A stretch of 64,000 bases of DNA. It comes from Dictyostelium discoideum. Lineage: Eukaryota. Positions 6,601-64,000 of the stretch are shown here, piece by piece. The position numbers and the translations under genes were made by a program. Position 1 is the stretch's first letter. The number at the start of each line of letters is the position of its first letter. The stretch lies in assembly GCA_000004695.1 (NCBI GenBank), contig CM000154.2, positions 2,208,001 to 2,272,000 of the forward strand, in the 5' to 3' direction. The notes under the pieces were generated by a model. That model was given only the letters and a program-made list of their open reading frames with translations, searched no databases and had not been told where the DNA came from.

Positions 6601-7007
6601 CTGCAGTACTTTATTTTTTTTTAAAAAAAAAAAAAAAAAAAAAAGTTAAAATAAAAAATAAATAAATAAATAAATAAAATATTAGTTAAATATATAATTT
6701 AAAAATTAAATAATTATATATACTCACTTTGTTTCAGCTTTTACTAAATCAGATAATTTACTACCTCTATTTGTAAAACCAGCTTTTGCACCTAAACAAA
6801 CGATTAATGCAATTAAAACTGCACTTTTACCACTACCATTTTCACCAGCAATAAAATTTACATTTGAACAGAAATCAAGTTTAAAATGACGATGACACAT
6901 GAAATTCTCCAATGTTATACTTTCTATGATACCAGCTTCAGGTTCTGTTACACCACTTTTCAATTGTTGTTCTCTTCTAACCGCCTCTCTTTCATCTTCA
7001 GAGTTAC

Positions 7008-7051
<44 letters not shown>

Positions 7052-7371
7052 CTACTACCACTATCACTTCCAGATGAATCCACATCCTCAACATCTTCAT
7101 CATCATCTTCACTTGAACCACTCTCTTCATCACTTGATTGAGCTTTTAATTTTTTTAATCTACCATTTGAAATTGGTTGTTGTTGTTGTTGTTGTTGGTG
7201 TTGCTTTGTTGGTGTCATTTGTTTTCCATTTTCAACTCTTTGTTGTTTATGTGGTCTATCTTGATCTTGTGTTGAATGAATTAATTCATCATCATCATCT
7301 TCTTCTTCTTCTTCTTCTTCTTCATCCAATTCGTGGGAATTTCCATCATGCCCTAACTTCCTCTTGGACAT
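3609..7371 (-). CDS. smc6: SMC6 (structural maintenance of chromosomes 6). Three exons: 7371..6728, 6608..6227, 6140..3609, about 1185 aa
   Basis: ORF-track ORFs 6724..7371 and 3609..6077 plus a hand-joined middle exon. Exon 1 has the Walker A motif [39 protein letters not shown] (human SMC6: [37 protein letters not shown]). The long coiled-coil arms and the C-terminal [19 protein letters not shown]…[17 protein letters not shown] are the SMC6-type signature/Walker B (human …PFRCLDEFDVYMD). A GTGAGT donor ends exon 1 in phase 2 and a GTAAGT donor follows …QKVVV. The N-terminus has an acidic poly-D/E and poly-Q extension. Confidence 0.85.
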
Positions 7372-12760: not shown

Positions 12761-14933
12761 TTTTTTTTTTTTCAAATTCCTTTTTTTTTTTTTTTTTTTT
12801 TTTTTTTCCCAACTGTCATTTGACAAAAATAACTATTTTTACTAAATTACAAAACAAAACAAAAAAAAAAAAAAAGCTTTTTTAAATTTTTTTTTTTTTT
12901 TTTTTATTTTTTTTTATTTTTTTTTTTTTTCCAAAAATTAATTTACCATTACCGCAATGGTACCAGTTGATTTTTATTTTTTTTTTATTCAAAAAAAAAT
13001 ATTAAAATAAAAAAAAAAATATTAAAATAAAAAAAAAAAAAAAAATAAAAAAAAAATGAAAATAAAAAAAAAAAACCACTTTTCCATGGTTTGAATTCAC
13101 ACACTTTCAAATTAATTTAATTGAGAATTCAAAATCTAGATATTTTTTAAATTTAAACGTTTAAAATTTAAACAAAATTATTTTTTATGACACGATGTGC
13201 TTCCTTTTAAGAAATGGTGGATGTTAAAAAATACTGAAATAAGATTCACAGATCTATATTATAGATTAATCCTAAAAACAAATAAATATAATGCGATGAA
13301 GCCTCACCAATATTAAAAAATGGGTTAGTTAGCCTCAATTAGTCGGGCATCCGTTTACCATCAATTATTTAAAACAAAACAAGATCTATCACTCACTTTA
13401 AATATAGGTTTGTAAATGAATTTAAAAGAATAAATTAAAATTTTTATTTTTTTTTTATTTTTATTTTATTTTTTTTTTTTTTTTCTAAAATAACACTATA
13501 AATTAAAAATTTTTTTTCATTATTATTTTTTTTTTTTCTAAAATAACAATCGATTATTTATTATTAAAAAAAAAAAAAAAAAATCAAAAAATAAAATAAA
13601 AAAAATCAAAAAAATAATAATAAAAATAATAATAATAAAAAAATAAAAATAAAATAAGGGATTAGGAAAAAAAAAAAAAAAAAAAAAAAATTTTTAAAAA
13701 AGATCTTTTTTTTTTTTAAAATTCCCCCCGCTCATTATAAATATTGTATATAAAAAACCAAAAAAAAAAAAACCATCAAAAAAATAATAAAAATAATAAT
13801 AATAAAAAAAATATTCTTAATAATTTTCTAAAAAAAAAAAAAAATAAAAACACCAATAATAATAATAATAATACACACACTTTTTTTTTTTTAATAACGA
13901 AAATCAAAAAAAAAAAAAAAAAAATATCTTTTTTTGCCAATACTCGAAAGCTTTTAAAAATAACAAAAGAAGTTTGGTAAGTTTTTTTTTTTTATTTTAA
14001 TTTTTTTTTAATTTAATTTTTTTTTTATTTTTTATTTTATTTTTTTTTTTTTTAATTTTTTTTTTTTTCATTCTTCGCAGCCAAAATAATGGCAAATCTC
14101 CAAAATAATTTGACCGTTTTTTTGGATATTTTTTACGATTTCCCACCTTGGAGACATTATTGTCACAATGTTTTTTTTTTAAAAAATTAGCGAGCAGCCC
14201 AAATGTTTTTTTAAGTGCAAATCATGTGATAACTGTATCCAATGGCGTTGTTTCTTTTTTTTTTTAGATATGTAAAGCAAAGCCACTGCTTATTGTTTTT
14301 TTTTTCTTTTTTTTTTTTTTTTTGATTTTTTTTTTTTTGTGCGCAGCCTCCTCGCCAATAAAAAAATTTTAAATTTAATTTTAATTTTTTAAAATATCCA
14401 TAGTTTATTCTTTTTTCTTTTTTTTTTTTTTTTTTTTTTTTATTTTTATATTTTTTTTTTTTTTTCTTTTTTTTATTTTTTTGATAATCCATAAATTGTT
14501 ATACGCTTTATTTTTTTATTTAAAAAATAATAATAAAAATCTACCTATATAATATATAATATATAATAAAATAAATTAGATTGTGTTTTTTTTTTTTCTT
14601 TTTTAAAAATTTAATAATAATAATTTATTACAAATCAATTAAATATTTTTATTATTAAACATTATAAATAATATAAAATTTTATTAAATTAATTATTTAT
14701 ACACCTTTCGTTTTTTAATTATAACACATATAACTTCATTCTTAAATATATTTTTTTTATTATAATTTTAAAAAAAAAAAAATAAATAATATAAAAACTT
14801 TTTTTTTTTTTTAAACAAAAATAATCACAACTGTTTTTTTAAATTTTATATATATATTATAAAAAATAAAAAACAAAAAAAAAAATTAAAAAAAATAAAA
14901 ACTTCAAAAACCCTTGATCTGCATTCACAAATA

Positions 14934-19191: not shown

Positions 19192-19886
19192 TTCTTTTTT
19201 TATGGTAGTCGCCTATTCGAATAAAAAAAATAAAAAAAAAAATGAAAATGAAAAATTATAAAAAAAAATTTTCAAATATTTGACCAAAAAAAAAAAAAAA
19301 TAAAAAAAAAAAGAAAAAAAAAAAAATAATATAAAATAAAAGTTAAAACATTAATTATCTTTATAAATTCAATGGTTAATTTCCAAAAAATAAAAATAAA
19401 ATAAAAATATATAAAGATCAAAAAAATAAATAAATAAAAAATAAAGATAAAAAAAAAAAAAATCATTTAATTTAAAGTGAATTAATTTTTTTTTTTTTTT
19501 TTCAGGTATACCTCTTTGTGAACTTGGACACTGTTTTAAAACAATAATTACAAAAATTAAAAAAAAAAAAAATAAAAAAAAAAAAAAAAGGTGTGATTAT
19601 TTTTATTATTTTTTTATTATTTTTAATTTTTTTTTTTTTTTTTTTATAATTTTTTTTTTTTTAATTTTTTTTTTTTTTTTTTAATTTTTTAATGTGTGAA
19701 GTGCACTTTAATTAAAATTTTTTTTTTTTTTTTTAATTTTCAATTTTTCTAATTTTTAATTTTTTTATATATATACATAAATATTTATTTTTATTTTTAT
19801 TTTTTTTTATAATTTTCCAACATAACAATATCTAATTATAATTTGGTATTAATAGTGTAATATTTGTTTTTTTTTTTTTTTTAAAA

Positions 19887-21274
<1,388 letters not shown>

Positions 21275-32954: not shown

Positions 32955-33714
32955 TCTTTTTTTTATTTATTTAATTATTTTTTTTTTATTTTATTATTAC
33001 TGCGTGAATGGAAAATGGAATTTTAATTTTTTTTTATTTTTTTTTTTTTTGATGGAAAAAAAAAAAAATTTTGGGAAAAAAAAAAAAAAAAAAAAAAAAT
33101 ATATGAAGAAAAGCTAAATTATAATTATGTCAATATATAAAAATTAAATAAATAAATAAATAAAAGAAAAAAATAAATAATGGTAATAATAAAATAATAA
33201 AATAATAAAATAATAAATAATTTTTTTTTTAAAAAAAAAAAAAGATTAAAAATAAAAGAAAATAAAAAAAAAAAATAAAAATTTTATAAAAAAAAATTAT
33301 AACAAATATACTATATTTATTGTGATGATGAATGGGATTTTTTTTAAAAAAAAATATATTTGCTTATTTATTTTATTATTTTCCTTTTTCTTTTTTTGGA
33401 TGATGATGTATTATTTTTATATATATTAAAAAAATATTTTAAAATAATTATGTTATTTGATTATTTATTACAAAAAAAATAAAAAAATAAAATAAAAATA
33501 AATAATAAAAAATTAAAAAAAAAGGAAAAAAAAAAAAAGGAAAAGGAAATATCTTTGGTATACAAAATGGTTGTGGTGTTGTTGATTTAGTCATCTATGG
33601 GTCAGTGTGGTTTATGAGTATATGTAATATTTGTTTGAATTTATATATGAGGTAGTGGCTTATTTAAAACAAAATACTATTTGTGATTACTATCTCTAAG
33701 TGTTATGTGTTTAT

Positions 33715-33740
33715 GTTGTGTGTGTGTGTGTGTGTGTGTG
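33715..33740. repeat. (GT)12 dinucleotide microsatellite inside a G/T-rich island
   Basis: The run GTTGTGTGTGTGTGTGTGTGTGTGTGG is visible directly. It is embedded in a 200-bp G/T-rich block (33560..33760) upstream of the 28776..32954 gene. Confidence 0.8.
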
Positions 33741-34400
33741 GAAAAGTGTGTTAGACATTAATGGGTTAAATTTTTTTTTTTTGTTTTTTTATACAAATAA
33801 AAAAATAATAATAATTTTATACATATATAAATTTATATTAAATATTTATATAATATATATGTTTATATAGTAAAATTTATTTTTAATAATAAATATATTA
33901 ATATGAACAAAAAAAAATAAAAAAATAAAAAAATAAAAAAAAAAAAATGGGTTAATTTATTTTATTATTATAAAACAAATTGATTCACTGATTGATTGAG
34001 TAAGGAATAACAATATTTACAATGATAATTGCAAAAATCATTGACAAAATGAGTGATTTAAATTTGATACTCACTTTCACATATAAAATTATTAAGGATT
34101 TTTCTTTATTTTTTTTTTATTTTTATAATAAAAAAAAAAATTTTCTTTTTCCAAAACAATGAAGTTTATTGCCTTTTGCTGTTATTGCTTTATTTGTAGT
34201 TTATATAATTAGTTTAATATATCTTTATTTTGTTGTTTGTTTTTTGTTTACTTGTAGTTTTTCAAATATTTTTAGTGTTTTTTTAAAATTGATATATCAC
34301 TAATTATTTTTAACCTTTACTTTTTTATTTTATTTTATTTTATTTTATTTGTATTATTTTTATTTTATTTAATTTGTATTATTTTGGAAAAACATATATA

Positions 34401-34436
<36 letters not shown>

Positions 34437-34762
34437 TTTGGTATGTATTTTTTATTTTTTTATTTTTTATTTTTAAAATTGAATTGGTTTCCTATTTGAG
34501 GAAACAATTTATTATAATGATAATCTTTATGAGGTTAGGGGGGTATTTATTTTTAGAATTTATTAAAAATATAAATAAAAAAAAAAAAATGAATAAAAAA
34601 GTGAATAGAAAAAAAAAAAAAAAAAAAAATGAATTAATTAAATAAAAAAAATAAAAATAATAATTAAATTAAAAATAAGTATCTCTTTCAGTTTGTGAAT
34701 TTGCGTGTTTATGAATAAAAAATTAATTATTTAATTTGGGTTTATATTGTTAATTTAAAACC

Positions 34763-34802
<40 letters not shown>

Positions 34803-35746
34803 ATGTGCAAAGTGTGAGAAAGTGGGTTGTTATTGTTTTAATTGTTAAAAGGTTTAGTGCGAGTGTTTTTGTTCTTTTTTCTTTAATTTTAGTAGTAGCG
34901 GTAGTACTTTCTACCAAAATACGTTATTGTCGTATTCAAAATTGATGTTATTAACAAGTGGTCTAAAAAAAATTAAAAAAAAAAAAAAAGGTGCTTTAAC
35001 AAAAATTTGGATTTCTTTTTTTTTTTTCTATTTCCTTTTTTCTTTAAATTACAAAAAATTTAAAAAAAATAAAAAAAAAAAAAGTTATTTTTATTTTTTT
35101 TTTTTGTAATTTTATTTTTTTTTTAATTTTTTTTTTTTTTTTTTTTTTGATTGAAACGTCCTTTGGTATTAAAGTATTAAGAAACTAATTTTGATTAGAG
35201 TATTTCGTTTTTTTATTATTGCTTTTATTGCCTATTTGATATAGAAAAAAAAATAAAAAATAAAAATAAAAAAAATAAAAATAAAAAATAAATAAAATAA
35301 AAATAATTAAAAAATAAAAAAACTATTGTTATTGCCCCTAAAAAATAATATTTCTTGGATGTGATCTAATTTTTCAGATTTCGTGGTTAAGTAACCAAAA
35401 AAAAAAAAAAAAAAATTTACTTTTTTAAATTTTGGTTTTGTTTTTTTTTTTTTGGTATATTATGATAATTAAACAATAATTTAATCTAGATTATCTTTTT
35501 AAAATGAAGTGTTGTCATCCAATTTTTTTCTGTATATAAAATTATTTATTCTAAAATAAAAAAAAAAACAATGTCTTAAACCATTTTTTAAAATTTTTTT
35601 TAAAAAAAAAAAAAAAATAAAATAAAATAATATTAAATTTAAAAAAAAAAAAAAAACAAAACTTTTTTTATTGTATTTTCATTTTTTTTATAAGCACATT
35701 TGCCAATTTATGTGTATGTAAGTGAGGTGTGTGTATGTACGAATAA

Positions 35747-41617: not shown

Positions 41618-41727
41618 TTTATTTGGTCAGATTTGTGCGAACACGGACGGTTAATTTCAAAGCCTACGAATGAACGCGAGCTCAACAGACGATCAGATAA
41701 TGTGCAACCAATCATCATTCAAATATT
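41618..41727 (-). ncRNA. Candidate box C/D snoRNA, about 106 nt
   Basis: The minus-strand sequence is 5'-UAUUUG A AUGAUGA U UGGUUGCACAUUAU CUGA UCGUCUGUUGAGCUCGCGUUCAUUCGUAGGCUUUGAAAUUAACCGUCCGUGUUCGCACAAAU CUGA CC AAAUA-3'. It has a perfect box C (AUGAUGA), a D' box (CUGA) 15 nt downstream, a terminal box D (CUGA), and a 6-bp terminal stem (UAUUUG/CAAAUA) flanking C and D in the canonical way. It sits on a GC island of about 45% in a 4-kb AT-rich spacer. Confidence 0.45.
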
Positions 41728-42571
41728 ACCCTTTACAAAAAATAAAAATGACAAATTTTCATTGTTTTTATTCATTTAAAAAACATCATTTTTTTTATTC
41801 ATTTTTTATTATGGGTCAAAAATTTTTTTAAAAAAAACGAAAAAAGTCATTTTTTTTTTTTTACTTTTTCCCCAAACACCGATATGGTTTTGGCAAAAAC
41901 ATATTCATTTAAAATTTATTTATAACTATTTAGAAAAAAAAAAAAAAAAAAAAAAATTATTCTTTCCAGTTTCCAAACAATTGTATAAGAGGAATGCATT
42001 AAGGGTATCATTCTGATGTCAAAGTCCAACAATATTCAGCTAGAAATATCTTTCAAAAATCTATTATCATTATAATCATTTCATTATTATTAATCTCAAA
42101 TATTTAAAATAAATAAAATAATAAGAAATTAGGTTTCACTCTTAAAGTTTTATTTTTAAAATTTTATTTATTATTAAAGTTTGCACTATGGAAATCTTTT
42201 TTGAGTATTAAATACATTAAAAGTTTTTTATTTTTAGATTACAATACCCATAAAGATTTAATTTTGTCATTCTGTTTTTTTTTTCTTTTTAAGGAAATTA
42301 AAAAACTCCTTTTTTTTTTTCTTTTTTATACACATTTATATAAAAAAAATAAAAAATAAAACATTAAAAAAAAAAAACTCGCGCCTTTTTTTCATAAAAA
42401 AAAAAAAAAAGTAAAAAAAAAAAAAAAAAGGAATTTTTTTTTTTTTCCAAAGTTGTTTTTTTTAAATATACATTTGCTCATTGAGCTATACACAATAATA
42501 ATAAAAATAAATAAATAAAATAAAAGTTGTAATAAATATTTAAATAAATATAAAAAAAAAAGATAAATAAA

Positions 42572-51643: not shown

Positions 51644-51985
51644 ACTTTTAAAGTAAAGTTGGAATATATATATATATTATATAGTTTTTATAAAATTTAT
51701 TATTATTTATAAATTATTAAAACAGGTTTTTTTTTTTTCGGGGTGGGGAATTAAAAAAAAAATTAAGGGAATTGGAAAAAAAAAAAAAAAATTTAAAAAA
51801 ATTGGAAAAAAAAAAAAAAAAAAAAATTAAAAAGGTTTTTTGAATCCTCAAATGAAAAATCAAAAAACTGTTTTTTTTAAAAAAAAAAACAATACCCTTT
51901 TTGATATTTGCTTTTTTTTCATTTTATTTTTTATTATTTTATTTTATTTAAAATACGGGATTAAATTTTTTTATTTGTTTTAATG

Positions 51986-52031
<46 letters not shown>

Positions 52032-52227
52032 GTTTGAGCTTATATGATTTTTTTTTATTTTTATTTTTAGAAAAAATTGCTTATAAAATGAAGAAAAAAA
52101 AAAAAAAAAAAACAATGCCCTGTAGTTTTGAATTTTTTTTAATAATAATATAAAATTATTTTTTTAATTTTTTATTTTTTTTTTTTAATGTTTTTTTTAT
52201 ATTATTTCAAAATATTAATCCCCGAGA

Positions 52228-52268
<41 letters not shown>

Positions 52269-52285
52269 CGTGTTTCAATTTTCAA

Positions 52286-57373: not shown

Positions 57374-57446
57374 GGGGATGTAGCTCAGATGGTAGAGCGC
57401 TCGCTTAGCATGCGAGAGGTAAAGGGATCGATACCCTTCTTCTCCA
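57374..57446 (+). tRNA. tRNA-Ala (anticodon AGC) with an atypical T-loop, followed by a T8 terminator
   Basis: The sequence GGGGATGTAGCTCAGATGGTAGAGCGCTCGCTTAGCATGCGAGAGGTAAAGGGATCGATACCCTTCTTCTCCA folds as a cloverleaf. The acceptor stem GGGGATG/CTTCTCC includes the G3:U70 Ala identity pair, the A-box reads TAGCTCAGATGGTAGAG, and the anticodon loop is CTTAGCATG (AGC at 57407..57409). The T-arm is AAGGG-ATCGATA-CCCTT, so position 54 is A rather than T and the B-box (GGGATCGATACC) deviates from GGTTCGANTCC. TTTTTTTT at 57447..57454 is a Pol III terminator. Confidence 0.75.
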
Positions 57447-57493: not shown

Positions 57494-58526
57494 TTGTTAA
57501 CATTTGAAAAAAAAAAAAACCGTACCGCGATCAAGAGGATACAAGATACACGTGAAAAAAAAAAAAAACCGTACATAAAAAACGAAAATGGACAACCACT
57601 TTCACTGGCAGAATGGTATACCACAATTCAAGACCAAAATCCAACCATCCCTAAAACGGAATTCCAATCATCTCTAAACTTAAGAGGCTACAGCTATAAT
57701 CAACTCTTCAACAACATACTGAAGATAAAAGACCCTAAAACAAGAGACACAATGTTTAGATTCCATGCCAGATGCCTTCCAATAAACTACCTTCACAACA
57801 AACAATGCCCACTCTGCAAAGAAGATATGAGCAAAGACCCATACGGTCACCTGTTCTTCTCATGCAAGAAAACAAAACAATTCATAAAAATAAATAAATA
57901 AACTCAAAAATTTCATCTATATTACCACAGGCAAAGGTAAAAACTGGCACCATACAAGAATTAGGCAAAATAACAATTTCATTAATAGAATAACTCCAAA
58001 ATTGTCACCGACAGCCAAAAAAGATCAAGAAGTGAATGCAGATTACGCCAACCACAGATTCCACAAAGAATACTTTGAATGGAACTATAAAGCAATAGAC
58101 TATGATCATTCGCATATAGAAACCTAATGGCCCTTATCCTCCACAACATTTGGATTTGGATTTGCAATCAAATATACAGTGAAGATCCTTTAACAGATGA
58201 ATCACTATCATACAGCTCCCTTCTAAAGAAATGGCACAAATTGGCCACTCTAGAATACATCAAAAAAGCAAAAGATCTGAAAAACTTATCAGCAAAAGAC
58301 CATAATAACTTCAAAGATCCTAAGATCCTTCTCACTTCAACGATCAAGCTAAGAAAAACAACAGCTAATTACTATTGTATTCCAGAATCATCTCTCCCAA
58401 ATATTATATCTTTTGATCAATTCATATGATTAAAATAACCCTTCAGCTTAAATGATAAGCATTTAAATAAATATTAAATAAAACTCGTATTAACACAGAT
58501 GGACATATATCAATCTTGTTAATCCA

Positions 58527-58560
<34 letters not shown>
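57494..58560 (+). mobile_element. 5'-truncated TRE3-like non-LTR retrotransposon fragment (the 3' part of ORF2 plus the poly(A) tail), inserted about 50 bp downstream of tRNA-Ala
   Basis: GC content (about 40%) is distinctly higher than the flanks. ORF 57494..57901 ends in a LINE ORF2-type C-terminal Cys motif RFHARCLPINYLHNKQCPLCKEDMSKDPYGHLFFSC (C-x2-C-x11-H-x4-C). A second frame (58127..58429) continues, and the element ends in about 35 A at 58524..58560. Its position and orientation fit the TRE3 class of tRNA-gene-targeted retroelements that integrate 3' of tRNA genes. Confidence 0.5.
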
Positions 58561-58565
<5 letters not shown>

Positions 58566-60229
58566 ATAAACTGAACCAGTTAGCTAACTACCAACTAGCA
58601 CCACAAGAGAATTTGGATCGAAAACAATAAATGTTTTGATAGAATAAATAATAGAACTATATATTTATTAATTCTAAATAGAATTTTGGTTAGTTAAAAG
58701 AAGATAATATAACAAGTAGTGGTCTAAAGAGACTAGGTTTGGGAGCACTGATTCAGAATGCAATTAACTTTACATGTTAAGTTTCTAAAATTAATAATTT
58801 GATTGAGAAAACGTTTAGATATTTTTTTATTCTATCAAATATAATTTAGTTTCTATTTTTTTTTTTTTATTTTTAATTTTTATTTTTATTTTTTTTTTTA
58901 GTTAAGTATATTAAATTTAAAAAACTAAAATAAAAAAAATAATAAACAAAATAAAATAAAATAGAAACTAAAATTTATTTGATCCTAAATCTAAAATAAT
59001 AAAATTTTACTTTTGTTTTTTTATATAATTAAATTTTATTTTTTGTTTTTTTTTACTCTATTTTTAATTTTTTTTTTTTTTTTTTCAAATTTTTCATAAA
59101 TTTATCTAAAATAAATTATTTGCTTTATAATAATGCTGTTGTTGTTATTGTAATGGTAATTGCAATTTCTGTTGTTGTTCTATTAACTGTGAGATTGGTG
59201 ACGTTGTTTCATTATTATTATTATTTTGTTGACCAGTTATCATTGGTTCGTTATCCTCGTTATTTGATTGTTTAAAAATTAATTAATAATTTAATTTCAA
59301 GTATGCCCTATTTTTTTTTTTTTTTTCTCAAGCACAAAAACAACAAAAAGAGATATAATATTATCAGAAATGAATTATCTAAAAATCCTTTGATGAATTA
59401 TTGAAAAATTTAGATTTAAACTGTAAATAAAATAATATCAAATAAAAATAAAAAAAAAAGATATAATAATTTCTAAAAATAGAAATCAAATTAAAAAAAA
59501 TAAAAAATAAAAAATAAAAAAAAAATAAAAAATCAACCCTATATTTTTTTTTATTTTCCTGAATAGGAAACAAAAAACCAAAACAGGAATTTATTGATCA
59601 ATGATTAAAAAGAGTAAAAATGAAAACAAAAAAAAAAAAAAAAAAAAAAATTTTAATGATCTGAATTCCTTTTTTGGTTTATAATAATCTCATCCAAACT
59701 TGGTATGAAAATAAATAAAAAAAAAAAGAAAAAAAAAGTATAAAAAAAGAAAAATTTTCTTTTTAATTTTCATTCATAAAATAAATTCTAACAAAACAAC
59801 AACTAATAAAAAAATAAAAATTAAATATATACAAAAAAAGAATTAAAATAGTATTGTGAAAAAAAAAAAAGTAAATTATTTATAAAACATTATTAAAAAT
59901 AATACTAATTTTTATATATTACTTTTATTTTTTTCTTTTTTTACTATTAAAATAAAGATATAGGTGAATGGAATTCTAAAAAAGATTATACATAATATTG
60001 GTTAATTATTCTTGAATTTCAATTTAATAGTATTTTTTTCAATTTCTTTTTTTAAGATTAATTAAAGAGGGTTTAAAGAGTATTACAAAGATTTTTACTC
60101 CAATGGATCATAATTGGAGGGGCATCACAGATACAATAATTTTTTTTCAACTTTTTAAATGATAAACAAAACAAAATGGATTAATTTCTATTTTGTTTTA
60201 ATCTTTTGTGTAGGAGAATTAAAATTTTC

Positions 60230-60425
60230 TATTCTGGAGTTGTCCTTCTTTTACATTTTCATTGTACGCCGGGTGGTTTGAAGCCTTATCATTCACATAT
60301 ACAATGAAGCATCATTAGTGGATGATCGTGCTGTAATCAGTTAAAGTGGGCAAAGTTGGGGAGTCAGACATGCCTCCCATCCTAATCGAGGAAACGACCG
60401 ACCACTCCTCATTTACATTCTTTTT
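60230..60425 (+). ncRNA. Candidate structured non-coding RNA (a GC island with several hairpins, the 3' one followed by a T-run)
   Basis: A 190-bp block at about 45% GC with no ORF in any frame. It contains hairpins GGGAG-UCAGACAUGC-CUCCC (60357..60381) and GAGGA-AACGACCGACCAC-UCCUC (60387..60409), followed by ATTTACATTCTTTTT. An upstream hairpin CCAAT-GGATCATA-ATTGG (60100..60117) is followed by …AATAATTTTTTTT at 60133..60147. It matches no U1/U2/U4/U5/U6 snRNA core that I can recall. Confidence 0.25.
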
Positions 60426-61412
60426 AGAAATAAAAAGAAACTTCAAACATGTAATATTAATTTATTATGTCAAGTGTTTCGAAGGTAAATGTGCTAATTA
60501 GAATATTGTAATTCCTGGGTATTACCTCTTTTCAAAATCATAAAAAAAAAAAAATAAAAAATAAAAAATATGAAAAAAAAAGGAAATTAATCAATCACAA
60601 CTCTCTCAATAGATTATAGTTCAACAAAAAAAAAAAAAAACAACAACTCAATCAATATGAAAATCAATTATTTTTTTATATTGTCGTAATGAATGTTGTT
60701 TTTTTTAATACTATAACACTTTTGTTTTCATAAATCAATAATATCACCTTCAAAAAAAAAGTAAGTTATTTTTTTTTTTTTTTTTTTAATAATAATAATT
60801 ACCGTTCACTGAAACTATAACAATTTTAAAAAAATTCAAAATACCTAGGTTACATTAATGTTCTTATAAGAAGGCGAAGTGTGTTCTCAAACTCAAATAA
60901 AAAATAAAAATCCATTCCAAAGAAAGTGTTTTAAACTATTTAGTAAATTAGAATTTAAATAATTTTTTTTAAAAAAACCTTTCAATTATAATCAAATTAG
61001 TCAATGTTTAAATAAAAAACACCTTTAACTTATTGATCATACAAATTTTTTTCATTTTTTCATTTATTTTCTAATTATTATTATTTTCTATTTTCTTTAT
61101 TTATACAACCCCAAAACTCTTGTATTTCCAATCAAGACAACACATAAAAGGATACACACAACATAAATAATAATAAAAGAAAGAAAATATTTTTAACGAG
61201 ATTTTAAAATCATTAAAAAAAAAAAAAGGAAAATTAGAAGAGAGTTTATTAATGTGTATTTTTTTTTTTTGTTTTTGTTTTTGTTTTCTGTTTTTTTTTG
61301 TTTTTTTTTTTCTGTTTTTTTTTTCTGTTTTCTTTTTCTGTTTTCTGTTCTTTTGTTTTTCTGTTTTTTTTTTTTATTTTCTTAAAAAAAAATTAATTTT
61401 TGTTTACCAAAA

Positions 61413-64000
61413 CTAACTATCAACCTCTTCATCATAATTTAAATTGTTATTATAATCATCATCTGGATTTTGAATTAAATCATTCAAGAAACTAAGTTGT
61501 TTAATGAATTTTGATTTCATTGTTTCTAATTCTGTTAAAATTTCGGTAAATGATGGACGTTGTGAAGGATCGGAAGCCCAACATTTTGTAATTAATTTTC
61601 TAAGGGACACTGGACAATCGGGTGGGATTGCAGGTCTATAATTTTCAAATGCAGCTTTAGCTGCAGATGCAGTACCATCCAAACCTTCGAATGGTATTTT
61701 ACCAGTATAAATTTCATAAACCACCAAACCAAAACTGTATACATCAACTTTTTCATTATACACCAATCCTTTTGTTAGCTCTGGACTTCTCCAACGTGGA
61801 TTAGTTATACCACTTAATGTCATATCATCGCTTAAAGTTGTTGCTAATCCAAAATCTGCAATTTTAATATTTTTAAATTCATCCAACTAAAATAATAATT
61901 ATAATAATAAAAATGTTAATATAAATAATATAAAGATAAAATATTTTTATTATAATATTCTTTCTTTTTTTTTTTTTTTAAAAAAAATAATAATACATAC
62001 TAAAATATTTTTACTTGTTAAATCTCTATGTAACATTTGAATTGAATGAAGATGTTCCATACCTAAAGATAAATCATGAATCATTTTATACATCATTAAT
62101 GGATTTAATTTAATTTTTTGAATATGTAAAACATCATAAAGAGAACCACCTTGAAGATACTCTGTAAAGATACATGGTGGATCAATACAGGCACCCATAA
62201 AAGTGACAACATTTGGATGATGAGATTTAATTAAACTTGAAACTTCTTTTATGAATTTTTCATCATTGGAAATACTTTCATTCTTTAATATTTTGATGGC
62301 AACTTTATAACCATTCCAAATACCAAGGAAAACATTTGCAAAACTTCCGGCACCAACCTTTTCAACGATGGCAACTTCATCAAATTTAATTTCTTTCTTT
62401 CCACGTAAAAACTCTGTAATTTCATTGAAACGCTCTTTCTTTTGAAGTTCTCTCTCCACCTCTTGATCATTATTTAACGACCAAAGTATACCTGGTGAAG
62501 AAAAGAATAATTTTCCCTCCAAATGATCGAAAAGTTTTAAGATATCATTGAAAGTTGGTCTATCACTTGGTAGAGGAGCCCAGCATCTATTAATTAGTTT
62601 ACGGATGATCAATGGACATGAAGTTGGTATCTTTGGTCTTAGATTTTCATAGGCGACTTTGGCAGCCACAGAGATATCATTGAATTTTCTAAATGGTAAA
62701 TGCGAAGTCAATGCCTCCCATAAAACAAAGGCATAGGCATAGACATCGATTGAACATGATATTTGATCCTCTTCCATTCTTGTCATTTCCGGTGCCATAT
62801 ATCTTGGTTCAATGGCTGGATTATTTAAATCGGTAGCATTCAACTTTGGGAATGATACTTTTACAATTTGAAATCTATCAAGATAAATGGACCTACTTGT
62901 TAAATTACCATGTGCAACATCTTTTGAATGTAATAATCCCATAACGCTTGCAATGTCCTTACTTATCTTTATAAATAGTGCCATATCAATCTTTAAACCA
63001 TCCCTATGAATTAAGTCATGTAATGAATTCATACCTTTAAAACTTTCAAAAATAATTGAATCACCACACCAACCAACTAATAATCCAAGATTTTTATGTT
63101 GAATCATTGTATATTTACTTGGTATAACTTCACTATTACTACCATTACTATTATTACAATGATGATGATTATGATTATTACCACCACTGCTGCCACTATT
63201 ATTACTTCCACTAACATTACTACCATTAAATAATTGTTTTCTTTTTTCAATATTTTTATCAGAATCTTGATCTTTTGGTTGTTTTAATACTAATTGAGTT
63301 GATTTATATTCAATTTGCCAAATATTACTTGATTTTGAATTTGATTCTAATTTCTCCAATAATTTAATTTCTTTAAATTCAATTGGTTTTGTATAAAGTT
63401 GATTCTCTCGTATCAATTGAGTTAATGATTCAAATTGTTCTTCATTCTTTTTTTCATAAGAATCAATTGATTCATTTTCATTCTCAAAGAATTGTATTGG
63501 ACTATTTATTGAAGAGTTTGATGATGTTTTAAAACATCCATTATTATTACCACCACCACCACTACCACTACCACCACTAATACTTGCACTACCGCGTGGA
63601 GAAGTATTTATACTACTATATAATTCAGCTCTTAAATCCAATGGTCTAAGTTCAATTTTTAATTCTTGTGAAAACTTTCTTAATGAATTTGTTAAATTTG
63701 AAGAAGTGGAAGAGGTTGATGATGATGGATTCATTGATCTTGGTGAGAGAGGATTACAACTTATTGTACTAGTACTACTTCCATTAAGGCTCCAATTACT
63801 ATTACTATTTGAAAGTGATGTTATTAAATTTTCCAATTCAATAATTTTTTCATTGATTTTTTGAATTTCTTCTGAAAGATTTTCAAAACTATCAGCATTC
63901 TCTGAATAACCTTCATCAATTAGATTTTGTTTCTCAATTAATGATTCTTTTTTCTCTATTAATTCATAAATCTCTTTTCTAGTACAACTTAATTTCTCCA
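61413..64000 (-). CDS. Tandem pseudokinase-kinase (JAK-like architecture), TKL/tyrosine-kinase-like, with its 5' end off the window. Exons: >64000..62001 and 61886..61413
   Basis: The reading frame of ORF 61950..63836 (TTG 'start') stays open upstream to the window end (…EKLSCTRKEIYELIEKKESLIEKQNL…ELENLITSLSNS…). The first kinase-like domain has a degenerate catalytic loop, HGNLTSRSIYLD, instead of HRDxxxxN, and keeps …DVYAYAFVLWEAL…. The second domain is canonical: VGAGSFANVFLGIWNGYKVAIK…HRDLTSKNIL | (GTATGT…TTTTAG, a 114-nt intron) | LDEFKNIKIADFGLATT…WRSPE…DVYSFGLVVYEIYTGKIPF…CWASDPSQRPSF. Confidence 0.8.

Follow-up and report, generated by a model that had tools for sequence, protein, structure and literature searches.

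Within the window, a 64,000-nucleotide stretch of Dictyostelium discoideum AX4 chromosome 5 (2,208,001-2,272,000), a tRNA-Ala gene (57374-57446) is followed by a C-terminal fragment of a non-LTR ORF2 (57494-58429), and downstream of both lies a GC-rich island at 60230-60425 (chr5:2,268,230-2,268,425). The GC content of the island is 41.8%, compared with 21.6% for the whole window, and its best 150-nt segment reaches 47%, the 99.9th percentile window-wide. No other segment of 150 nt or more outside the long ORFs of the 64 kb has a GC content of 0.40 or higher. The island is therefore a real compositional feature, as the original prediction held, although at less than the ~45% GC then given. The prediction that it is closed in all six frames is also correct: no frame is open across 60230-60425, the longest stop-free stretches being 40-54 codons. 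The kinase coding sequence excludes the island. On the plus strand, complex sequence runs from ~60060 to 60535, and an A-rich tract follows at 60540-60590.

We compared the locus with a diverged D. discoideum strain (assembly GCA_054859385.1), which lacks the ORF2 fragment. Between the two strains, known ncRNAs are 100% identical, DdR7 and the tRNA among them, exons are ~98% identical, and intergenic DNA is 78-90% identical with many indels. Expressed as divergence, intergenic DNA differs by 7-13% with frequent indels, introns by 6.7%, and third codon positions by 4.0%. The island carries 6 substitutions in 193 positions (3.1%; 96.9% identity) and no indels, and sits in an indel-free span of 240 nt. 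Its divergence is below that of introns (p = 0.03), but not significantly below that of third codon positions. Because third codon positions differ by just 4.0%, the constraint on the island is moderate. Loss of conservation had been named beforehand as an outcome that would speak against a functional RNA; the island is retained across these two diverged lineages. The T. lacteum and P. violaceum loci show no synteny, and searching with the protein of the flanking kinase gave no dictyostelid match. The region is made up of the following segments, to none of which a strand is assigned.

59994-60155: conserved AT-rich block (block 1), holding a hairpin (60098-60119) and a T8 run (60140-60147); 3 substitutions in 156 positions, no indels.
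60156-60224: hypervariable AT-rich spacer between the blocks, with a 13-bp A/U hairpin (60168-60199); 15 substitutions in 65 positions, plus indels.
60225-60417: GC island proper, non-coding; 96.9% identity, ORFs unconserved; its core (60260-60412) has ~47% GC.
60418-60540: moderately conserved flank, the upstream side of a minus-strand gene if there is one, with a TGTG box and a T5 run; 7 substitutions in 123 positions, plus a single 1-nt indel.

Block 1 is more clearly constrained than the GC island. All three of its A/T runs of 7 nt or more are equally long in both strains, compared with 20 of 161 such runs (12%) elsewhere in intergenic DNA. The conserved blocks are sharply bounded by hypervariable segments at 59900-59999 and 60156-60224. 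An exon-intron model of the blocks was rejected, with no splice consensus at their boundaries on either strand.

The three stems named in the original prediction are all present: GGGAG (60359-60363) pairs with CUCCC (60374-60378), GAGGA (60388-60392) pairs with UCCUC (60406-60410), and the third is formed by the GCCGGGUGG segment. The upstream hairpin and its T8 run are there as well, fully conserved in the second strain. Of the predicted terminal U-run, the UUUACAUUCUUUUU tail is present in AX4, but its T5 (60420-60424) reads TTTAT in the second strain. Stable structure was not borne out. On neither strand is the fold of the 201-nt region better than that of dinucleotide shuffles (z = -0.37 for plus, +0.02 for minus). 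RNAalifold on the sequences of the two strains does not discriminate between the strands, and no terminator-like site passes a simple scan.

Searches for known RNA families at the island were negative. The Rfam 15 covariance models compared include those for SRP, RNase P/MRP, U snRNAs, U3, Class I/II, DdR snoRNAs, and vault, Y and telomerase RNAs. At gathering thresholds, only DdR7 and tRNA are found in the whole window, and at E<=10 the interval 59800-60800 returns noise only (no score above 19.6 bits, where the thresholds are 42-180). The MRP/P-type and Class II-type RNAs suggested earlier are not supported by any MRP, RNase P, Class I or Class II model. A miRNA hairpin was rejected, its mir-460 match of 18.6 bits against a threshold of 52 being noise, and the supplement of Liao 2018 (miRNA) contains no island locus. 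For box H/ACA snoRNAs, also suggested earlier, we required a hairpin, ANANNA, a second hairpin and ACA 3 nt from the 3′ end, with the hairpins closed beside the boxes. No such hairpin-hinge-hairpin-tail fold exists on either strand, in strict or relaxed (8-nt slack) form. The island resembles H/ACA snoRNAs in the ~150-nt size of its GC core and in a minus-strand ANANNA (60334-60329) and ACA (60265-60263) ~63 nt apart; however, the 62 nt between these boxes fold with only -9.6 kcal/mol, into two branches.

Promoter elements gave the same picture. The DUSE, [A/T]CCCA[C/T]AA, lies ~60 nt upstream of the TSS or TGTG box (PMC7919456), and we used it as a requirement for Class I/II RNAs, snRNAs and some snoRNAs. 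Neither strand of 59900-60750 holds a DUSE with up to one mismatch, compared with ~2 expected by chance, and the one plus-strand TGTG box (AAATGTG, 60487-60493) has no DUSE upstream. A Class I/II or snRNA-type gene is ruled out by the lack of a DUSE and of an Rfam match. The Pol III transcript suggested earlier was examined as a type-2 gene, defined by an A box (TRGCNNAGTGG), a B box (GGTTCGANNCC) and a T-run terminator. A tRNA-like Pol III gene was rejected: neither box is present, ARAGORN finds nothing at the island, and the T5 is unconserved.

These results bear directly on a structured small RNA of ~190 nt on the plus strand, of Pol III or snoRNA type, ending at UUUUU (60420-60424). Such an RNA would make use of the named stems and the T5 run. 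Its predicted helix 60288-60296/60318-60326 tolerates the substitution at 60322 (A>G) as a G-U wobble, and block 1, as we read its sequence, could be its upstream promoter. The near-zero fold score, the TTTAT of the second strain, the missing A and B boxes and DUSE, the failed H/ACA architecture and the lack of any Rfam family, including SRP, RNase P/MRP and Class I/II, make it unlikely. In addition, the 70 nt adjoining it upstream are hypervariable. An independent plus-strand small RNA gene is disfavoured because its upstream side is hypervariable and its downstream side conserved.

A coding exon or pseudogene fragment, for example a UL52/PrimPol-type zinc finger on the plus strand (60337-60498), is barely conceivable. 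The peptide matches PF03121 over residues 22-53 and has a C-X4-C motif, with E = 3.9e-4 and a score of 20.7 bits, where the curated cut-off is 21. Among 122 control peptides, however, about 8 match Pfam at E<=0.01, and E-values are inflated ~5-fold in AT-rich translations; PDB and NCBIfam give no support. In the second strain the frame is interrupted by a stop at 60433 and shifted at ~60468, with loss of the C-X4-C. In the longest minus-strand frame all substitutions are non-synonymous, and the GC-rich half has GC-rich third positions, unlike Dictyostelium genes. With a marginal match that lies below the cut-off and inside the calibrated noise, and with a broken ORF, the zinc-finger exon is effectively refuted. 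The disruption of the small ORFs in the second strain shows the island to be non-coding. The earlier proposal of a non-coding functional element thus survives in its general form, with few substitutions, no indels and broken ORFs in its favour, while the specific RNA classes it offered do not.

The island matches no known RNA family, and a box C/D-like layout on the minus strand is the sole specific RNA-gene signature found. The search for this motif was post hoc, after several other architectures. The layout and the part of the core outside it are as follows, in minus-strand order.

60413-60417, minus strand: putative 5′ half of a terminal stem (UGUAA), pairing with 60332-60336 in five Watson-Crick pairs beside the C/D boxes.
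60406-60412, minus strand: putative C box AUGAGGA, one mismatch to RUGAUGA; identical in both strains.
60364-60367, minus strand: putative D′ box CUGA; CUGG in the second strain.
60337-60340, minus strand: putative D box CUGA, 65 nt past the C box; identical in both strains.
60332-60336, minus strand: putative 3′ half of the terminal stem (UUACA); unchanged in the second strain.
60260-60331, no strand assigned: second half of the GC core, outside the C/D model, with a CAUUGUA...UACAAUG hairpin; 3 substitutions in 72 nt (60270-60271 CG>TA and 60322 A>G), no indels.

The mismatch in the C box is at position 5, and both GA dinucleotides are intact. The two substitutions inside the candidate fall on the last base of D′ and on the stem pair beside the C box; the latter, 60413 A>U on the minus strand, shortens the terminal stem to 4 bp in the second strain. 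The candidate has a GC content of 51% and a long C-to-D′ spacer of 38 nt, and by eye the 23 nt between D′ and D hold no recognisable C′ box. Scanning both strands of the 64-kb window for the C/D layout returned four loci: DdR7, the island (C-D distance 65 nt, stem 5 bp) and two loci inside ORFs. The same scan of both strands of the 21-kb locus in GCA_054859385.1 returned two matches, the DdR7 orthologue and the island locus. Only 25 of 5000 dinucleotide shuffles of the island (0.5%) give a C/D layout whose stem has 5 bp or more, and ~0.6 such layouts are expected by chance across the whole window.

Our data suggest that the island most likely carries an unannotated minus-strand box C/D-like small RNA gene. 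This reading is tentative, with a probability of roughly 0.3, and a regulatory element and a neutral relic are serious rivals to it. Transcription of the minus strand would yield an RNA of ~86-90 nt closed by the terminal stem UGUAA (60417-60413)/UUACA (60336-60332), possibly extended at its 3′ end through the remaining GC core to ~60228. By analogy with established box C/D snoRNPs, a kink-turn formed by the C and D boxes would bind Snu13, Nop56, Nop58 and fibrillarin, and a segment of 10-20 nt preceding D′, D or both may pair with a target RNA, directing its 2′-O-methylation. In box C/D guides, the methylated target nucleotide is paired five positions upstream of the box. On the verified 86-nt 28S segment, to which the guide test was confined, the candidate makes a 7-bp match that places the +5 position on G2549 and not on Am2547, and the duplex energy near Am2547 is no better than that of shuffles (p = 0.27). 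A guide for the orphan 28S site Am2547 was therefore rejected, since its complementarity is no better than chance and its register is wrong. The candidate would be an ‘orphan’ guide, because no convincing rRNA target was found in the 86-nt 28S segment.

The nearest point of comparison is DdR7/CD7 (Rfam RF01575), located 18.7 kb away on the same strand as the candidate. Like the island, DdR7 is GC-rich in AT-rich intergenic DNA and has a C/D layout with a terminal stem. The flanks show the same asymmetry: between strains, the 100 nt upstream of DdR7 are 92% identical and the 100 nt downstream 77%, and for the candidate a conserved minus-strand upstream side (60418-60540) stands opposite a hypervariable downstream side (60156-60224). 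In contrast to the island, DdR7 combines a canonical C box with a DUSE located 88-95 nt upstream, is 100% identical between strains, and has assigned rRNA targets and proven expression.

Diesend et al. 2022 searched the D. discoideum genome with snoScan (C+D score >9, distance 50-100 nt) and retained only loci with a sharply defined 5′ end and >100 reads in axenic AX2, giving a catalogue of 47 C/D snoRNAs (PMC8817022). The candidate falls inside the published ranges of length (66-113 nt) and C-D distance (50-97 nt); its 51% GC compares with a catalogue mean of 32% and maximum of ~44%, and with 22-39% in the OR RNAs (PMC8817022). The genome-wide snoScan pass should have included the island locus, which is missing from the 47 expression-validated C/D snoRNAs (PMC8817022). 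It is likewise absent from the published miRNA and lncRNA catalogues, the ncRNA lists in which the original prediction had proposed to look. The orphan snoRNAs OR1-OR9 are intergenic and single-copy, as is the island in the 64-kb window, and lack a convincing rRNA target, as does the island on the 86-nt 28S segment. OR8 is the closest of them in layout, with AUGAGGA accepted as its C box (PMC8817022 Table S4), a CUGA D box, a 5-bp stem and a C-D distance of 60 nt, compared with 65 nt here. The candidate differs from OR1-OR9 in being uncatalogued, in its higher GC content and in the variation of its D′ box and one stem pair in the second strain. It also sits in a larger conserved GC island that a snoRNA leaves unexplained: the C/D model covers 86 of ~190 conserved GC-rich bases, and block 1 lies wholly outside it.

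This wider conservation is the starting point for the rival that we rank next, a possible reading in which the island is conserved non-coding DNA, cis-regulatory or structural, or part of a longer unannotated transcript, and not a stand-alone snoRNA. As DNA, the element would span block 1 (59994-60155), the island and the moderately conserved 60418-61412; as a transcript, an RNA of 420-550 nt would have a variable linker between its conserved domains, the island being one of them. Conservation does extend beyond the C/D candidate, with 1.9% substitutions and no indels in block 1, ~2.5-5% substitutions in 60541-61412 against 7-13% in other intergenic DNA, and the sharp hypervariable borders described above. 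The negative Rfam, DUSE, A/B-box and fold-score results also suit this reading. The end of block 1 appears to carry a TATA-like element and an oligo-dT run facing the island, a combination that resembles the Dictyostelium Pol II core promoter. Ordinary promoters, however, are poorly conserved in the same alignment (51644-52285, for example, has 12.7% substitutions and 13 gap events), and a ~270-bp insertion at ~61090 in the second strain means that not the whole stretch is constrained. We know of no Dictyostelium regulatory DNA that resembles 150 nt at 47-54% GC, and the interval chr5:2,243,024-2,304,426 contains no listed poly(A)+ lncRNA. A specific form of the longer transcript, in which block 1, the linker and the island (60225-60417, perhaps to 60540) make up one DUSE-less RNP RNA of ~420-550 nt, is very unlikely. 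Its linker would be free to vary, as linkers are in RNase P/MRP or telomerase RNAs. More speculatively, the minus-strand CUCCCCAAC (60363-60355) could template A-G(1-8) terminal repeats; Dictyostelium terminal repeats are irregular and G-rich, of the form A-G(1-8), in the older rDNA-terminus literature, and to our knowledge the Dictyostelium telomerase RNA has never been identified.

The other serious rival, which we place after the DNA element or longer transcript and consider rather doubtful, is a neutral relic: a GC-rich fragment inserted before the strains split and not yet decayed, with a C/D layout that is coincidental. Its source could be a GC-rich RNA that was retro-copied, or an old 5′-truncated retroelement of which it is the 3′ end. 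The island lies in a tRNA-gene landing zone, where tRNA-Ala precedes the non-LTR ORF2 fragment. It shares with TRE3-type fragments a position downstream of a tRNA gene, the orientation of its TRE-like neighbour and an A-rich tract (60540-60590) after the complex sequence. A relic would also account for a divergence not significantly below that of third codon positions and for the lack of an expression record in the published C/D snoRNA, miRNA and lncRNA lists, and two of the four C/D scan matches in the window are chance ones inside ORFs. Unlike TRE3-type fragments, the island has no sequence or protein similarity to its TRE neighbour, nor to the rest of the window (blastn, tblastx), and no reverse-transcriptase-related domain, its sole Pfam match being the marginal PF03121 in an ORF broken in the second strain. 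Its core reaches 47-54% GC, compared with a maximum of 41% in the TRE fragment. The absence of indels over 240 nt and a divergence below that of introns also speak against neutral decay. Repeat or transposon termini were rejected, with no second copy, terminal inverted or other terminal repeat, or target-site duplication in the 64-kb window. A bacterial, plasmid or phage origin was rejected as well, with no match in E. coli, plasmid, phage or prokaryote collections; a structured metagenome pattern search returned only a bacterial PASTA-kinase contig, which is coincidental. As a neutral relic, the island would be an ordinary finding.

Should the minus-strand box C/D-like RNA prove real, D. discoideum, with only 47 catalogued C/D snoRNAs and a single described H/ACA snoRNA, would gain an orphan guide. 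A scan for GC islands combined with between-strain conservation would then find small-RNA genes that expression-filtered snoScan misses, including genes without a DUSE promoter. With the diverged assembly, phylogenetic footprinting becomes workable in this extremely AT-rich genome, and it exposes a strongly constrained AT-rich block beside the island.

The compositional island of the original prediction is borne out. At 60230-60425 (chr5:2,268,230-2,268,425), GC is 41.8% against 21.6% window-wide, the best 150-nt window reaches 47% (99.9th percentile), and no reading frame is open across the segment. All other segments of at least 150 nt with a GC fraction of at least 0.40 sit in long ORFs, among them actin, rps7, other exons and a retroelement fragment. 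The stems and T-runs read as a structured plus-strand RNA are present, but they are no evidence of structure, because folding does not beat dinucleotide shuffles (z = -0.37 for the plus strand, +0.02 for the minus strand) and a scan of the region found no terminator-like site. The supposed terminal U-run (T5, 60420-60424) becomes TTTAT in a diverged D. discoideum assembly (GCA_054859385.1, the second strain) and was judged not meaningful.

The island lies inside a 2.6-kb gap. Its neighbours, and the lncRNAs of the window in the catalogue of Rosengarten et al. 2017, are as follows.

57374-57446 (+), tRNA-Ala (AGC) gene, one border of the gap
57494-58429 (+), C-terminal fragment of a non-LTR retroelement ORF2, next after tRNA-Ala, with a weak zf-RVT match
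stop at 61413 (-), 3' end of a two-domain TKL kinase gene, other border
14044-14299 (-), lncRNA CUFF_1021_1, chr5:2,222,044-2,222,299
33116-35024 (+), lncRNA CUFF_4047_1, chr5:2,241,116-2,243,024

One protein encoded in the window is DDB_G0289023 of D. discoideum AX4. Together with the catalogued position of DdR7 given below, this sets the window at 2,208,001-2,272,000 of AX4 chromosome 5 (DDB0232432). The retroelement fragment carries a C-x2-C...H-x4-C motif and begins 48 nt downstream of tRNA-Ala(AGC), the spacing expected of a TRE3-type element. Since 57501-59344 (1843 nt) matches only 484 nt in GCA_054859385.1, D. discoideum lineages are polymorphic for the insertion. A coding-looking segment at 59148-59282 (-), ending …EDNEPMITGQQNNNNNETTSPISQLIEQQQKLQLPLQ before the stop, lies in the AT desert that separates this fragment from the island. 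It has no Pfam match and may be the last exon of a gene missing from the annotation, or an ORF arisen by chance.

The second-strain locus (L005; JBTAPF010000012.1) was reached by a search with the neighbouring maspardin-like protein and covers 40608-62733.

Divergence between AX4 and GCA_054859385.1
Exons: 1.4-1.7% substitutions, no indels
Third codon positions: 4.0% (24/598) substitutions
Introns: 6.7% (11/164) substitutions, about 4 gap events per 100 nt
AT-rich intergenic DNA: 7-13% substitutions, 2-3 gap events per 100 nt
DdR7 and tRNA-Ala: 0% substitutions, no indels
Block 1 (59994-60155): 1.9% (3/156) substitutions, no indels
Spacer (60156-60224): 23% substitutions, indels present
Island (60225-60417): 3.1% (6/193) substitutions, no indels
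Flank (60418-60540): 5.7% substitutions, one 1-nt indel

The island rate is significantly below that of introns (p = 0.03) and not below that of third positions, so constraint on it is moderate and not proven. DdR7 served as the positive control for a real snoRNA gene in this comparison. The 98-nt stretch 41624-41721 (-) is identical to this Rfam Dictyostelium snoRNA, listed as CD7 at chr5:2,249,625-2,249,721 (-) in Table S5 of Diesend et al. 2022 (PMC8817022). Its DUSE (ACCCATAA) lies at 41809-41816 (-), 88-95 nt upstream of the mature 5' end; between strains the snoRNA is 100% identical, the upstream 100 nt 92% and the further flanks 69-77%.

Beside the island, block 1 (GC about 0.23) is unusually conserved and more clearly constrained than the island itself. 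It has three A/T runs of 7 nt or more, none of which differs in length between the strains; in other intergenic DNA the length of such runs is preserved in 20 of 161 cases (12%). Its borders with hypervariable 59900-59993 and 60156-60224 are sharp. The 7-bp hairpin within it (60098-60119), which is perfectly paired, and the T8 run at 60140-60147 are unchanged in the second strain. The spacer holds a 13-bp A/U-rich hairpin (60168-60199), whose single C-G pair (60172/60195) is lost in the second strain through G>T at 60195 and a 4-nt deletion removing the C, with the A-U stem retained. This change looks compensatory, but could be simple turnover of an AT palindrome. Two conserved blocks flank an insertion of ~270 bp in the second strain at about 61090-61102 (L005 reverse-complement about 19250-19560), downstream of the kinase gene. 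An A24-like run stands at its end, and the difference may stem from a mobile element inserted in that strain or from a deletion in AX4.

A coding exon is excluded. The plus-strand open segment 60337-60498 matches the UL52/PrimPol zinc finger PF03121 slightly under the cut-off, PDB and NCBIfam searches gave this match no support, and the second strain interrupts the frame with a stop codon at 60433 as well as a frameshift near 60468. All changes between strains are non-synonymous in the longest frame of the minus strand, and GCA_054859385.1 has no gene call over the interval. Among 122 control peptides from other non-genic DNA, about 8 had Pfam matches at E<=0.01, ~5-fold above nominal. One of these stop-free controls (45-70 aa) matched HALZ and bZIP_2 at E = 2e-5 to 5e-5 and bZIP_1 at E = 1e-3, and is probably a short real bZIP-gene exon missed by the ORF-length mask.

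Known RNA families do not account for the island. Rfam 15 gave no match at gathering thresholds, MRP/P and Class II families included, and what appeared over 59800-60800 at E<=10 was noise. The island has no tRNA-like gene and no A/B boxes, and the H/ACA architecture, tested explicitly because only one such snoRNA is known in D. discoideum, fails on both strands. The island is absent from the 47 C/D snoRNAs of Diesend et al. 2022 (PMC8817022) and from the Liao 2018 small-RNA supplement, the lncRNA listing has no entry between chr5:2,243,024 and 2,304,426, and none of the papers searched prints the sequence. A TGTG box at 60487-60493 (+) is probably chance, given 10 occurrences of this motif across the window.

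In the GC-richest half of the island, a putative box C/D arrangement was found on the minus strand.

60417-60413 with 60336-60332 (-), terminal stem UGUAA with UUACA
60412-60406 (-), C box AUGAGGA
60367-60364 (-), D' box CUGA
60340-60337 (-), D box CUGA

A simple C/D scan of both window strands returned four loci: DdR7, the island and two within ORFs. The last two, 20393-20476 (-) and 6938-7049 (-), have canonical AUGAUGA, CUGA and a 4-5-bp stem; they are probably chance because each sits in an open frame (the first in one of about 120 codons, the second in the 215-aa ORF 6724-7371) and neither appears in the snoRNA catalogue. The second strain's 21-kb locus yielded only the DdR7 orthologue and the island locus, and only 0.5% of island shuffles arrive at the same layout when a stem of 5 bp or more is required. 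Catalogued OR8 also has AUGAGGA as its C box, and size and spacing fall inside published ranges (PMC8817022). Like DdR7, the candidate has a conserved would-be upstream side and a hypervariable downstream side. A structured snoRNA pattern also matched, by coincidence, a bacterial contig (L004; JAEIGA010655161.1, 1359-1446). There the 15-mer GGGAGGCATGTCTGA belongs to the gene of a PASTA-type Ser/Thr kinase, beside a PP2C phosphatase, and codes for its glycine loop, G-T-G-G-M-S-D.

Several observations count against the C/D reading. Other architectures had already been tried when the motif turned up, no C' box is recognisable, GC is far above that of every catalogued snoRNA, and the candidate's two substitutions in the second strain strike D' and a stem pair. 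A genome-wide snoScan screen with an expression filter, which should have considered the candidate, does not list it (PMC8817022). The DUSE, a Dictyostelium small-ncRNA promoter element ~60 nt upstream of the TSS or TGTG box (PMC7919456), is absent from 59900-60750 on both strands at up to one mismatch. No target was found in the 86-nt 28S segment compared; with its sequence verified from bioRxiv 10.1101/2024.11.11.623112, the D' guide matches the conserved H69-H71 region at chance level (p = 0.27). A guide for orphan site Am2547 was rejected, since the +5 position would fall on G2549.

The C/D model covers less than half of the conserved GC-rich sequence and nothing of block 1. A close rival, which we regard as possible though doubtful, is that the island is conserved as a DNA element or forms one domain of a longer transcript. 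Somewhat unlikely, and also close, is that it is left over from DNA inserted into a tRNA-gene landing zone and has yet to decay; around the island we found no terminal repeats or target-site duplication, the 64-kb window holds no second copy, and E. coli, plasmid, phage and prokaryote collections show no similarity to it. We tentatively favour a small RNA gene of box C/D-like type on the minus strand, so far unannotated, at a probability of about 0.3. The original observation is partly confirmed: the island exists and a second lineage retains it. A functional non-coding element, which may be a small RNA, still stands as the general idea, but the hairpins, U-run, plus-strand orientation and proposed classes (Pol III, H/ACA, MRP/P, Class II) do not.

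GCA_054859385.1, although labelled D. discoideum, may represent a deeply diverged lineage or cryptic species, judging from the alignment; GCA_054883475.1 shares 99.1% identity with it across 21 kb. Its level of divergence is useful for phylogenetic footprinting of AX4.
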